Positions 2,373 to 39,736 of a stretch of DNA of 64,000 nt are shown one piece after another. The translations under genes were made by a program, and so were the position numbers. A model generated the notes under the pieces. It ran no database searches, was not told the DNA's origin, and was given only the letters and a program-made list of their open reading frames with translations. How positions within the stretch are numbered: the stretch's first letter is position 1; every line of letters begins with the position of its first letter. Source of the stretch: Oscillospiraceae bacterium (GTDB lineage Bacteria > Bacillota > Clostridia > Oscillospirales > Oscillospiraceae); the NCBI GenBank assembly GCA_963629425.1, contig CAVGIU010000002.1, forward strand, positions 112-64,111. The letters are read 5' to 3'.

Positions 2373-4508
2373 ATGGATGAAAACACTGTTTTAGACGAAA
2401 TACCGTCCGAGGAGATACCTCAGGCGGAGAAAAAAGGCCGAAAAGGCAGGCATTCCAAACCGCAGAAGAACAAAAAGAAAAGCGGTGGCAAAAAGGGGCT
2501 TGTTGTCGCGCTGTGCGTGATCCTCGCGCTCGCTGTAATAGCCGCGCTGTTCGTGTTCGTCGTTTACGGCGGACGGCACCTGTACCTCAAGGTCGAACTC
2601 GGCGGCGGAGCGCCGGATGCCTCGGCATTCATGAAAAACGGCGCGGAAGCAAGCTATGTCGGCGATGTGAATGTCAGCGAGACCAAAGAGGGCACATACA
2701 TATTAAAGGTCAAAAGCGGCGGCAAGGTGCGCCCGGAGCTTCTCATCGTGCGCGATACGAAGGCTCCCACGACCGACACTACCGAGATAAGTATAACGAT
2801 AGACGATAAGTCGCTCGACGCAAAGGAAGCGCTCGGTGACGTTGAGGATGCGTCGGAGTTTACGGCGGCGTGGGTCAACGAGCCGAGCTACGGTGAGGCG
2901 GGTGTTTATGATTGCAGCATAAAGCTCGAAGACGCCTGCGGCAACAGCCGCACGGCAAAGCTCACCGTCAAGGTACTCGGCCTTGTCGACGTTTTGGAGC
3001 ACGAGGCCGGTCAACCGAGGCCGCAGCTCAAGGACTTCATGGTCGTTGAGCGCGACGACGCGAAGTTTGTCACCGATCTTGATGAGATAGCCTGGGATGA
3101 ACTCGGCGACTATGAGGTCAAGGTCGAGTTTGACGGGAAGACCTACACATCGACCCTGCGCATTGTCGACACCACCGCGCCTGCGCCCGATATGATCCCC
3201 GTGGCGGTGCTCAAGGACGGAAAGATTGAGGCAAAGGATATTGCCCTGAGCAACGGTGACGCGAGCGAGGTAAGCTATGAGTTCACCTCCGAGCCGATTC
3301 TCTCGAAGGTCGGAACTGTCTCCTGCGGCATAAAGGCGACAGACGATGCCGGAAACAGCAGCGATACAAGATGCAAAATCATCGTCTGCGACGCGATAGC
3401 GGAGCTTGAAGCATCGATGGACATGGTAACGGAAAGCGACGTTCTCGCCGCTTTGGGCGAGGACTACGCCGGATATAAGCTCGAAAGCGCGGCATTTGAG
3501 CGCACCGCTCTCGGCGCGCACGCCATGGTTTTCTCCAAGGACGATGACAGGATAACCGTCGGCGTCGTCATAAAGGATACCGTCGCTCCCACGGCTGAGG
3601 GCATCGACTGCCGGTGCAGCACGGGCTACTACTGTGAGCCGATAAAATTTGTCACCAATCTTTCCGACATGTCAAGGGTGACGGCGAGATTCGTAAACGA
3701 GCCCGACTGGAGCGTCGAGGGCGAGCAGGCGGTGCAGATAATCCTCACCGACCGCTTCGGAAACGAGACGACGGTGGATGCCAAGGCGGTCATATCTCCG
3801 GACAAGACCGCGCCCACTATCTATGCCGCACGCGACAGATACTGCTATGTCGGCGAAGCCGTGTCCTACTTCAAGGAGGTCTTTGCCGAGGATAACGCGG
3901 ATCCCGAGCCGACGCTGGATGTCGACAAGTCCAAGGTCGATGCCAAAACTGCGGGAACCTATGACGTTACCTATACGGCCACCGACCACGAGGGCAACAC
4001 CTCGTCTGTTACGGTGAAATTTACATTCATCGAAAAGAAGATAAGCGACGAAAAGCTCGATGAGGTCGTCGACAAGGTGCTTAAGGAGATACTTACCGAC
4101 GATATGACCGTTTCCGAGCAGGCGGCTGCGATCTATGACTATTGCTACGGCAATATCATTTATACCGGTACCTCCGACAAGACCGACTGGAAGAGCGAGG
4201 CCTACCGCGGTCTGACCGAGGGCGTGGGCGACTGCTTCACCTTCTACTCGTCAAGCTATGCCCTCCTGCAGAAGATCGACTGCCAGGTGCTCAGCGTTGA
4301 GCGCATAGGCGGCAGAACGCAGCACTTCTGGTGCCTTGTCAACCTCGGCACGGGCTGGTACCACTTCGACAGCTGCAATGTCGGCCCGGAGAAGCTCAGA
4401 TGCTTCATGAAAACGAGCGAGGAGCTCGTGCAATACAGTCAGCAGTATTGGCGCTTTGACACGACGCTGTACCCGGCTGTCGAGACAATACCGTATTCGA
4501 TGAACTGA
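2373..4508 (+). CDS. Membrane-anchored surface protein with repeated Ig-like modules and a C-terminal transglutaminase-like Cys-His-Asp core
   Basis: 711 aa. Lys-rich cytoplasmic N-terminus followed by one TM helix (LVVALCVILALAVIAALFVFVVY). Four modules are each introduced by D-[TK]-x-A-P-[TA] (DTKAPT, DTTAPA, DTVAPT, DKTAPT). C-terminus has GVGDCFTFYS ... HFWCLVNLGTGWYHFDSC. Confidence 0.7.
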   Translation: MDENTVLDEIPSEEIPQAEKKGRKGRHSKPQKNKKKSGGKKGLVVALCVILALAVIAALFVFVVYGGRHLYLKVELGGGAPDASAFMKNGAEASYVGDVNVSETKEGTYILKVKSGGKVRPELLIVRDTKAPTTDTTEISITIDDKSLDAKEALGDVEDASEFTAAWVNEPSYGEAGVYDCSIKLEDACGNSRTAKLTVKVLGLVDVLEHEAGQPRPQLKDFMVVERDDAKFVTDLDEIAWDELGDYEVKVEFDGKTYTSTLRIVDTTAPAPDMIPVAVLKDGKIEAKDIALSNGDASEVSYEFTSEPILSKVGTVSCGIKATDDAGNSSDTRCKIIVCDAIAELEASMDMVTESDVLAALGEDYAGYKLESAAFERTALGAHAMVFSKDDDRITVGVVIKDTVAPTAEGIDCRCSTGYYCEPIKFVTNLSDMSRVTARFVNEPDWSVEGEQAVQIILTDRFGNETTVDAKAVISPDKTAPTIYAARDRYCYVGEAVSYFKEVFAEDNADPEPTLDVDKSKVDAKTAGTYDVTYTATDHEGNTSSVTVKFTFIEKKISDEKLDEVVDKVLKEILTDDMTVSEQAAAIYDYCYGNIIYTGTSDKTDWKSEAYRGLTEGVGDCFTFYSSSYALLQKIDCQVLSVERIGGRTQHFWCLVNLGTGWYHFDSCNVGPEKLRCFMKTSEELVQYSQQYWRFDTTLYPAVETIPYSMN

Positions 4509-19197: not shown

Positions 19198-19502
19198 AAA
19201 AAGCTCCCAAAGGCCGGCTGAGACAAGAAAACATACGGTTTTGAAGCGATCTTTTCCGCATCTGCTGCGTCTGAGACCTTGAGAATACGTCAGTATGCTC
19301 TGCGGCCTCATCCTTGCAGAAACAAAAAATCTCAGCTTCAAAACTGCGAGCACCCGAAAAGACGGAGCATGTGCGAGGTCAAGGCGCGGCGGTGAAGGCA
19401 TACTTTGCGTATATCAAGCCGCCGCAACGATGACATTCGTGCATACTCCGCCTTTTTCGGACGTGTGTTTTCTTATCTCAACCGGCCTAATGGAGAGCTT
19501 TT
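19198..19502 (+). repeat. Repeat family R1, copy A: 25-bp inverted arms (19212-19236 and 19463-19487) around a 226-bp structured core
   Basis: Left arm GGCCGGCTGAGACAAGAAAACATAC and right arm GTGTGTTTTCTTATCTCAACCGGCC are 22/25 complementary. Outer stem AAAAAGCTCCC..GGAGAGCTTTT. The core matches the reverse complement of the core at 39474-39698 at about 90 percent. Confidence 0.85.
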
Positions 19503-19503
19503 G

Positions 19504-19512
19504 TGCTATAAT
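19504..19512 (+). promoter_or_regulatory. Extended -10 element (TGcTATAAT) just outside the right end of repeat copy A, upstream of gtrA
   Basis: The sequence tgctataat lies 40 nt upstream of the gtrA ATG. There is no good -35; that position falls inside the repeat arm. Confidence 0.35.
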
Positions 19513-23665: not shown

Positions 23666-23670
23666 CGTTT

Positions 23671-23824
23671 AAGCTGACGGGAGTTGAACACCTACCGGTT
23701 TTGGCAGGCTGATTTTCACTCATGCTGCGTTAAAACCCTTGAAAATACGTCAGTATTCTCTGTGGGCTTTGCCTTGCCTGAGCAAAAATCAGCTCTGTCA
23801 AAACTGCAAGGCACCTGTCAGCTT
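23671..23824 (+). repeat. Repeat family R1, copy C: diverged half-element (module 1 only) with its own short inverted ends AAGCTGAC/GTCAGCTT
   Basis: CCTTGAAAATACGTCAGTATTCTCTG and GTCAAAACTGCAAGGCACC align with 19275-19300 and 19335-19352 of copy A. About 75 percent identity over about 120 nt. Confidence 0.65.
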
Positions 23825-39004: not shown

Positions 39005-39433
39005 ATGAAAAAATTCGCAGCGCTTATACTTGTCGCAGTATGTATTCTCTCTCTAGCCTCATGCTCGGCAAAGCGCGAAAAAGAGATATGCATTTGGACG
39101 CATGATCTCAAAGCAGAGGACATCACAAGCGCCTTAGCGTGGAGCTGGGATGGCGAAGACGATGTCCAAAACTATCTCAGCCAAGATGAAACGGCCGAGC
39201 TTGTTTCCTTGCTCAATAAGCTGACGGACGACAGCTTTACCGAAAACAGCGAATGCGTAGGCGGTACTCCGGAATACGGCATCGTGCTCGAAATTGACGG
39301 AGAGTACTTTTGCATAAACCAGTCTATTGCGCCGCAGGGAGCCTTGGAGACGGAATACGGAGACAAGTTGTGGTGGATAGATAACGATGAGCTCACGGAC
39401 TTCGTCAAAAGCGTGTGTAAGGTTGCAGATTAA
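39005..39433 (+). CDS. Lipoprotein of unknown function
   Basis: 142 aa. Lipobox ILSLASC. Confidence 0.55.
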   Translation: MKKFAALILVAVCILSLASCSAKREKEICIWTHDLKAEDITSALAWSWDGEDDVQNYLSQDETAELVSLLNKLTDDSFTENSECVGGTPEYGIVLEIDGEYFCINQSIAPQGALETEYGDKLWWIDNDELTDFVKSVCKVAD

Positions 39434-39435
39434 TA

Positions 39436-39736
39436 AAAAACTCCCCAAGGCCGGCTGAGACAAGAAAACATACGCCCGAGAAAACGGAGCATGCACGAAT
39501 GTCGTCGTTGCGACGGCTTGGTATACACAAAGTATGCCTTCGCCGCCGCGCCTTGACCTCGCACATGCTCCGTCTTTTCGGGTGCTCGCAGTTTTGAAGC
39601 TGAGATTTTTTGCCCCTGTAAGGATGAGACCGCAGAGCATACTGACGTATTCTCAAGGTTTCAGACGCAGCAGGGGCGTAAAAGATCGCTTCAAAACCGT
39701 GTGTTTTCTTATCTCAGTCGGCCAAGGGCGTTTTTT
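39436..39736 (-). repeat. Repeat family R1, copy B: same arm polarity as copy A (arms 39449-39473 and 39699-39723) but the 225-bp core is inverted
   Basis: Left arm identical to copy A (25/25) and right arm 23/25, both read on the plus strand. The core at 39474-39698 is the reverse complement of 19237-19462 at about 90 percent. The outer stem runs into a T6 tract on both strands. Confidence 0.85.

Follow-up and report, generated by a model that had tools for sequence, protein, structure and literature searches.

The stretch of DNA analysed here (the window) comprises 64,000 nucleotides of contig CAVGIU010000002.1 from an Oscillospiraceae bacterium and carries two copies of a palindromic element, copy A at 19198-19502 and copy B at 39436-39736, with equal 25-nt arms in the same polarity around reverse-complementary cores. 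Both copies are members of an apparently undescribed family of non-coding, palindromic mobile repeats of about 275 bp in Oscillospiraceae/Clostridia, which resemble miniature inverted-repeat transposable elements (MITEs), and the opposite orientation of the two cores is best read as a rare, accidental inversion that became fixed; the probability of this reading is put at about 0.62. An initial annotation, made from the sequence alone, had taken the pair as the footprint of recombination between inverted repeats and had raised a site-specific, phase-variable inverton tied to gtrA, the gene downstream of copy A. Inversion mediated by inverted repeats fits the present data, but the inverton tied to gtrA does not.

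Two copies with opposite cores

A scan of the window for the 25-nt arm pattern (at most three mismatches) returned exactly four sites, with none expected in shuffled sequences. The arm GGCCGGCTGAGACAAGAAAACATAC is present on the plus strand at 19212-19236 and 39449-39473, with 25 of 25 positions matching in both places, and its imperfect complement at 19463-19487 and 39699-39723, with three mismatches apiece. Left and right arms are complementary at 22 of 25 positions in copy A as well as in copy B, the longest exact inverted stretch within them is 9 nt, and the right arms of the two copies differ from each other at two positions of 25. When copy A was aligned over its full length with the reverse complement of copy B, the cores (about 226 nt) showed 91.6-92% identity. 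At copy B, arm positions 13 and 23, together with a variant at position 6 that is B's own, are left-type on the left and right-type on the right. The arm scan, the alignment and these diagnostic positions thus bear out the earlier description of arms of fixed polarity around a flipped core. A profile search (nhmmer) of the window identified exactly three members of the family, namely A, B and a shortened third copy, copy C, at 23670-23823, which the initial annotation had overlooked.

The family as a whole indicates which copy is flipped. When 16 distinct elements were tabulated in the orientation of their cores, 15 of them, from both subgroups, had T at position 23 of the left arm and C at that of the right arm (read as the reverse complement), and copy B of the window species is the sole exception; copy A is therefore canonical and copy B carries the inversion. 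This tabulation of core orientation against arm polarity in relatives had been proposed earlier as a check. Its outcome, together with a sister species (locus L088; L-numbers denote loci and contigs from other assemblies) that has an unflipped core between the same arms and flanks, upholds the view that the core was flipped, rather than whole elements having been inserted in opposite directions.

The features of the three copies are as follows.

19198-19208, plus strand: AAAAAGCTCCC, left half of the stem of the typA intrinsic terminator, which the insertion separates from the right half (from empty sites in relatives)
19209-19211, plus strand: AAA junction; AA lies on both sides, a possible 2-bp target duplication from the A-rich terminator loop
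19212-19236, plus strand: left arm (terminal inverted repeat) of copy A, which forms stem P1 (arm scan, family alignment)
19237-19346, plus strand: hairpin H1 of copy A, with tip palindrome GAGAATAC-GTCA-GTATGCTC at 19281-19300 (folding, alignment)
19347-19353, plus strand: linker CGAGCAC between H1 and H2 (folding, alignment)
19354-19460, plus strand: hairpin H2 of copy A (folding, alignment)
19463-19487, plus strand: right arm of copy A, 22/25 complementary to the left arm (arm scan)
19492-19502, plus strand: right half of the typA terminator stem and T-run, GGAGAGCTTTT (empty-site comparison)
19504-19512, plus strand: extended -10 of gtrA, TGcTATAAT, outside the element (present at empty sites)
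23670-23823, plus strand: copy C, internally deleted, sister subfamily (nhmmer E = 1.9e-44, model positions 1-154)
39435-39448, plus strand: AAAAAACTCCCC, left half of the bidirectional terminator that separates a lipoprotein gene from spoVAC, and AA junction (empty alleles)
39449-39473, plus strand: left-type arm of copy B, 25/25 with the left arm of A, here adjoining the H2 end of the core, a non-canonical arrangement
39474-39698, minus strand: core of copy B (H1 and H2), inverted relative to its own arms (99.1% identity with cores at the same locus in other species)
39699-39723, plus strand: right-type arm of copy B with the position-6 variant specific to locus B (arm scan)
39724-39736, plus strand: AA junction, right half of the terminator stem and T-run, AAGGGCGTTTTTT (locus-B alleles)

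Insertion sites and mobility

The element either is still mobile or was so until recently, because empty and occupied sites exist at both A and B and dispersed copies lie at unrelated loci. Orthologous loci were fetched from other assemblies by their flanking proteins. At empty typA-gtrA sites (GtrA 83-87% identical), typA is directly followed by an intact intrinsic terminator, AAAAAGCTCCC-CAAAT-GGGAGCTTTTT (L067-71) or AAAAAGCGCTCC-AACA-GGAGCGCTTTTT (L057-66). On this comparison copy A is placed within the loop of the typA intrinsic terminator, and the weak outer stem AAAAAGCTCCC..GGAGAGCTTTT that had been noticed around the arms is real: its two halves are the stem of this terminator, which the insertion has pulled apart. 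At the empty sites the terminator is immediately followed by TGTGTTATAAT or TGTGCTATAAT (TGTGYTATAAT). In the window, as had been noted, copy A ends at 19502 and is followed by the extended -10 TGcTATAAT (19504-19512) and the gtrA ATG (19552). The presence of TGnTATAAT at empty sites means that the gtrA promoter lies outside the element and predates it. The flipped copy, moreover, is B and not the gtrA-adjacent A, and the earlier suggestion of gtrA phase variation is accordingly abandoned.

All window-type copies with readable flanks lie between an A-run with a GC stem and the complement of that stem with a T-run. Relative to the core, 11 loci (10 in the table of canonical elements, plus L102) read ..AA|GGCC...GGCC(T)|AA.., which points to a possible 2-bp AA target duplication for the window subtype. 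This subtype inserts in the A-rich loop of intrinsic-terminator hairpins, where its arms lengthen the terminator stem, which is probably why the insertion is tolerated.

Copies of a second, sister subtype have been found at typA in relatives. The L007 species carries one at the typA stop codon, where AGATA is followed by the element (AGCTGACG...CGTCAGCT) and then by TAAGAAAAAAGC, compared with AGATAAGAAAAAGC at the empty site, a TA duplication. In L050-L055, from a sister species, a full sister-type copy (~290-568) lies exactly at the typA stop and shows a TA duplication against the empty sequence, with the TAA overlapping the end of the element and the downstream typA terminator intact; these genomes also have a CN_hydrolase gene between typA and gtrA that is absent from the window. 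Strain-level variation of the sister-type copy at typA is about 2%, as counted from the fetched sequences.

In several metagenome contigs (L022, L040, L023, L027, L081) the left and right flanks come from different repeat loci. L081 has a gap of Ns and one flank in duplicate, and many contigs break off 3-50 nt into an arm.

Orientation states at locus B

The genes on either side of copy B, a lipoprotein gene and spoVAC (spoVAC-spoVAD), converge on it with their 3' ends. Among the loci fetched from one sister species (P0127), seven are occupied and three empty, and among those from another (P0129), three are occupied and four empty. In two more distant species locus B is empty wherever the available sequence reaches spoVAC, as read from the sequence for five loci and deduced from gene spacing for the rest. 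Empty alleles read AAAAAACGCCCC-GC/AT-GGGGCGTTTTTTT (L076, L084, L092), and flanks of occupied and empty alleles diverge by 1-2%, the same as between occupied alleles. A 9-nt unit, AAAAAACGC, is tandemly repeated just upstream of the terminator (L074-L088; window equivalent at about 39430-39446), and empty alleles have one more unit than occupied ones (three versus two in the P0127 species, two versus one in the P0129 species), which could be a footprint of element loss or gain.

Three occupied states have been observed. In the first (L088, L007), the order is lipoprotein gene, CCCCAA, left arm, core forward, right arm, AAGGGCG and spoVAC. In the second, that of the window species, flanks and arms are the same as in L088 and the core is reversed. 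In the third (L014, L037, L074-83), the whole element is reversed, including the asymmetric CCCCAA/AAGGG junctions. The core flip requires breakpoints at arm positions 24-26 (the last 3 nt of the arms). For the flip of the whole element, the simplest explanation is a crossover within the 11-bp stem of the terminator, with breakpoints beyond the arms. Independent insertions in opposite directions are a less likely source of the forward and whole-flipped states: the element takes its asymmetric junction along (CGCCCCAA on the left, AAGGGCG on the right), and the two pre-insertion loops would have to be exact reverse complements.

Locus-B cores are 99.1-100% identical between species, although the adjacent 300 nt are only 82-87% identical, and no differences were present among occupied strains whose flanks are 1-2% apart. 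This near-identity indicates either a young, site-specific element that spread recently through the clade or a copy under strong constraint.

Close nested inverted repeats can occasionally invert the segment between them, most likely when replication switches template or when the arms recombine within one molecule. At least one such event probably turned the core of copy B around in the ancestry of this genome, with both breakpoints in the final 3 nt of the arms, and then became fixed; a replication fork that stalls where the very stable core hairpins begin may favour this breakpoint position. The flip presumably serves no regulatory purpose. Recombination between copies A and B was also considered, but, reasoned on paper, it would invert the 20-kb interval and leave the arms canonical with respect to the core, and cannot give the state of copy B. 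Hairpin-associated small inversions are known to recur between close relatives in plastid non-coding DNA (PMC12371153).

Other members of the family appear to record similar events. Subgroup 2, a further window-type lineage with a core about 85% identical to that of subgroup 1, shows a swap relative to subgroup 1 at arm position 13 alone, which suggests two inversions, since different crossover points would give this pattern. In addition, the subgroup-2 H1 tip GGTAATACACAAAGTATTGCC (L020, L022, L023, L026, L034 and others) is the reverse complement of the subgroup-1 H2 tip GGCATACTTTGTGTATACC (compared at window 19388-19412), with two 1-nt indels, as though one of the hairpins had received an inverted copy of the other's tip, which points to a further strand-switch event. 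The position-13 swap and the tip exchange are the traces expected of repeated strand-switch events at different points in a nested palindrome.

Architecture and distribution of the family

Elements of the family are 275-280 bp long with terminal inverted arms of 25-28 nt, and the only open reading frames (ORFs) on them are spurious ones that cross element boundaries. The arms pair as stem P1 around the two long hairpins H1 and H2, and a three-way junction can form on each strand; in the folding of copy A, the weak outer stem closes the arms and the arms close H1 and H2. The tip palindrome of H1, GAGAATAC-GTCA-GTATGCTC, is the most conserved part of the family and is near-invariant across AT-rich and GC-rich lineages. 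An alignment of 20 members supports a common three-way-junction structure with compensatory changes at 49 of 63 pairs, including pairs of P1, the sequence of which differs completely between subtypes. Cells with G-U and A-C are about equal in number (~45 vs ~35); neither RNA strand is therefore favoured, which argues for a DNA palindrome or a strand-neutral structure. One core is carried by two types of arm, the window type GGCCGGCTGAGA... and the sister type TAAGCACACGGGAGTCGAAC...GTTCGAnTCCCGTGTGCTTA.

A scan for the H1 tip across one genome per species returned 17 loci, all from metagenome-assembled genomes (MAGs) of uncultured Clostridia or Oscillospiraceae and many at contig ends, and an arm scan of gut metagenomes added 26 loci. 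The flanks of copies from MAGs and metagenomes fall into at least 10 distinct contexts, and in the JAZPXS01 MAG a copy forms the end of several contigs. The number of copies seen per genome is about one to three. No match to Rfam at the gathering score was present in the window, where the element gave only chance-level hits at E <= 10, nor in three sister-subtype loci, and literature searches returned no named description of the repeat. A phage or plasmid vector was sought, but there was no match among the plasmids of PLSDB and none for the arm or the H1 tip among the viral contigs of IMG/VR. One weak hit came from a putatively viral faecal contig labelled 'Bacteriophage sp.' (MT835783.1, L102 2355-2650); it represents a third window-type lineage, with arms GGCCGGCTCCGCATAAGAAAATATGC and H1 tip CCCCATACGCCAGTATGGGG, inside a terminator loop GCACCG..CGGTGC. 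Two candidates for longer autonomous variants were discarded, as L027 is a truncated or chimeric contig and L033 is the same locus as L010.

Copy C, with ends TAAGCTGACGGGAG.. and ..GTCAGCTTA, retains the left arm, H1 and the junction and lacks H2. Compared with L016, its deletion lies between short GTC repeats, and the copy closely follows a terminator in the interval that separates a GNAT acetyltransferase gene from a convergent ABC-F gene. In L002, two sister-type copies (3013-3240 and 3265-3539) lie back to back in inverted orientation, 24 nt apart, with an RNase P RNA gene and a flavin mononucleotide (FMN) riboswitch about 1.5-2.6 kb upstream. The sister-type arms (for example L002 3265-3293 and 3510-3539) resemble a tRNA T-arm and 3' acceptor strand (GGTTCGATTCCCGTGTGCTTA). 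For these arms (GGTTCGAnTCCC..GTGCTTA) ARAGORN called no tRNA or tmRNA, and the T-arm loop would be 8 nt; the long P1 pairing is the better structure, and the resemblance is treated as coincidental or historical. Three other pairs of inverted matches in the window (75-81%), at 10422-10466/28542-28586, 17074-17145/55352-55423 and 11493-11561/25269-25337, do not resemble the element, and the first looks like two similar terminator hairpins.

Weighing the alternatives

The classification as a MITE-like repeat rests on a short, non-coding element with terminal inverted repeats, on dispersed copies and on the contrast of empty and occupied sites. A number of points weigh against it and against a fixed accidental inversion. 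The copy number is low for a MITE, and no autonomous partner (a transposase gene between the same arms) was present among the fetched loci, although no search was aimed at one. The same terminator is occupied in four species by near-identical elements, which requires either that an old insertion has been strongly conserved for no evident reason or that a highly site-specific element has been spreading recently, neither of which is typical of a decaying MITE. A target duplication of the window subtype is not cleanly visible at locus B, since the loop bases and the count of AAAAAACGC units vary too between alleles with and without the element. Of the identical stretches in the arms, it was the shortest (3 of ~23 nt, about 13% by length) that received the crossover, which is compatible with chance and also with a defined breakpoint. 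Finally, the orientation data are consensus assemblies, in which minority orientations are invisible and low-level switching may have gone unseen.

The alternatives are taken in descending order of probability. It is unlikely, though worth considering, that the functional unit is a structured non-coding RNA or a 3'-untranslated-region/terminator module, with the arms as its closing helix and orientation changes as incidental. The conserved three-way junction with its many compensatory changes, even in the subtype-divergent P1, the near-invariant H1 tip, the 99-100% conservation of locus-B cores across species and the folding z-scores of copy A (-10 on the plus strand, -13 on the minus strand) are consistent with such a module. 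However, any palindromic DNA yields 'covariation' of this kind, no bias of G-U over A-C is present on either strand across the family, and the element occurs in both orientations relative to flanking transcription units, is absent in conspecific strains, and has neither an Rfam match nor a promoter-like site. A strand-specific RNA was rejected on the same family-wide balance, although copy A by itself favours the minus strand. As RNA, its minus strand is 23 kcal/mol more stable than its plus strand (-161.5 vs -138.3), and several C-A mismatches of the plus strand are G-U pairs on the minus strand, an asymmetry that is not family-wide.

A second alternative, rather improbable on present analysis, is that of a still active, highly site-specific non-coding element that targets terminator loops and moves or replicates via a folded single-strand three-way-junction intermediate, the flips of the core and of the whole element being by-products of hairpin processing, much as at the terminal hairpins of parvoviruses, and not accidents. 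The H1 tip would then be the putative binding site of a trans-acting, perhaps HUH-type, enzyme. Such an element would account for the 99-100% identity at locus B, for presence and absence within species and for the near-invariant H1 tip.

A programmed inverton, in which a tyrosine or serine invertase encoded in trans recombines the 25-nt arms and flips the core on several copies as a phase-variation switch, is improbable. Imperfect inverted arms (22/25 in A and B) do flank a 226-bp segment that is found in two orientations with identical arms and flanks (L088 and the window), conservation between species is far higher in the element than in its flanks, as might hold for a functional switch, and at positions 13 and 23 the arms have kept their mismatches from subgroup to subgroup instead of being homogenised. 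Nevertheless, no sampled species had both orientations among its consensus assemblies. Copy A is canonical and identical in 4/4 conspecific assemblies (the window and L044-46), copy B has the same state in 3/3 (the window, the MAG contig L048 and L047), and occupied loci are uniform in the P0127 species (7/7) and the P0129 species (3/3). Nor was any directional cargo identified beside a regulated gene. A scan for sigma-70-type promoters called none inside A or B on either strand, a terminator scan called none inside either copy, the gtrA promoter is external and pre-existing, and the flipped copy lies between convergent gene ends. A Pfam scan of the 50 ORFs of the 64-kb window revealed no recombinase or transposase domain, in agreement with what had been stated earlier, and hence no cognate invertase among them. 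The whole-element flip at the same locus includes the arms, which an arm-specific invertase would not produce, and the element is missing from the same site in conspecific strains.

It is very improbable that no inversion took place and that copy B is an ordinary insertion in the opposite orientation, with its arms mimicked by parallel point mutation or gene conversion. Only three to four positions per arm are diagnostic and all differences are transitions, which leaves some room for such convergence. At least six coordinated arm changes and a swap of the CCCCAA/AAGGG junctions would nonetheless be needed, exactly onto the L014 and L088 states, while the 224-nt core gained only two differences, and mismatch repair of hairpins would perfect the arms rather than swap them. 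A mis-resolved orientation of the B core between two similar repeats can be dismissed as extremely improbable, since, for all that some subgroup-2 metagenome contigs (L022, L040, L027) are visibly chimeric or end inside the repeat, the B configuration recurs base for base in the independent MAG contig L048, its left junction is also present in the Logan contig L047 (run SRR13434649) from a different assembler, the 9-nt exact inverted arm stretch is far below any assembler k-mer, and the A and B cores differ by 8%, so that reads distinguish them.

Relation to known elements

Like the Correia/CREE repeats of Neisseria, ERIC, RUP and REPINs, the element is short, non-coding and dispersed, has terminal inverted repeats of about 25 nt and folds into a long hairpin. 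In common with MITE-like repeats it is intergenic, often at gene 3' ends or terminators, and shows presence/absence polymorphism and, here in the sister subtype, TA duplication. It differs from them in its three-way-junction core, in the conservation of a hairpin tip, which exceeds that of the terminal repeats, in having two unrelated arm sequences around one core, in its very low copy number, in its strict terminator-loop location, in a core inverted relative to the arms and in the lack of an identified cognate transposase among the loci examined. Adeno-associated virus (AAV), a parvovirus, offers a resemblance only: its T-shaped terminal hairpins are likewise three-way-junction palindromes with inner palindromes inverted against an outer stem. 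In AAV, whose genome is linear single-stranded DNA, the flip and flop states are produced as hairpins prime replication and Rep nicks the DNA, whereas nothing here shows such replication or an HUH enzyme.

Invertons are invertible promoters such as the RecV-dependent switches of Clostridioides difficile, fimS and the capsule promoters of Bacteroides. They share with the element imperfect inverted repeats of 20-30 nt flanking a segment of 150-300 bp found in two orientations, a comparison that rests in part on PMC11602134. The element differs from invertons in having no promoter cargo, no nearby invertase and no within-species heterogeneity in assemblies, and in its convergent-gene context, its mobility, its absence from conspecifics and a second level of flipping that includes the arms.

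Inversion of the spacer between inverted repeats by template switching has been described in plastid non-coding regions (PMC12371153) and in quasipalindromes of yeast and E. coli (PMC8604942, PMC7202029). As in these hairpin-associated inversions, the segment between short imperfect repeats flips while the stems stay, the events are recurrent and differ between close relatives, no dedicated enzyme is needed, and terminator-like hairpins are often the site. In contrast, the 226-bp spacer is itself composed of two hairpins, the arms are not homogenised, and the setting is a mobile element in a bacterial chromosome.

Significance

For annotation, a false lead is removed, as the element between typA and gtrA is no phase switch of a gene for glycan modification. 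Software that calls invertons from inverted repeats could mistake the element for a switch, and the repeat yields chimeric or broken metagenome assemblies. The switch gives way to a family of repeats, apparently undescribed, that sit inside intrinsic terminators in gut Oscillospiraceae/Clostridia. Locus B provides a natural series for the inversion of nested palindromes in bacterial chromosomes, with empty, forward, whole-element flipped and core-only flipped states. The near-identity of the element across species, despite 13-18% divergence of its flanks, is the single feature that could lead somewhere new.

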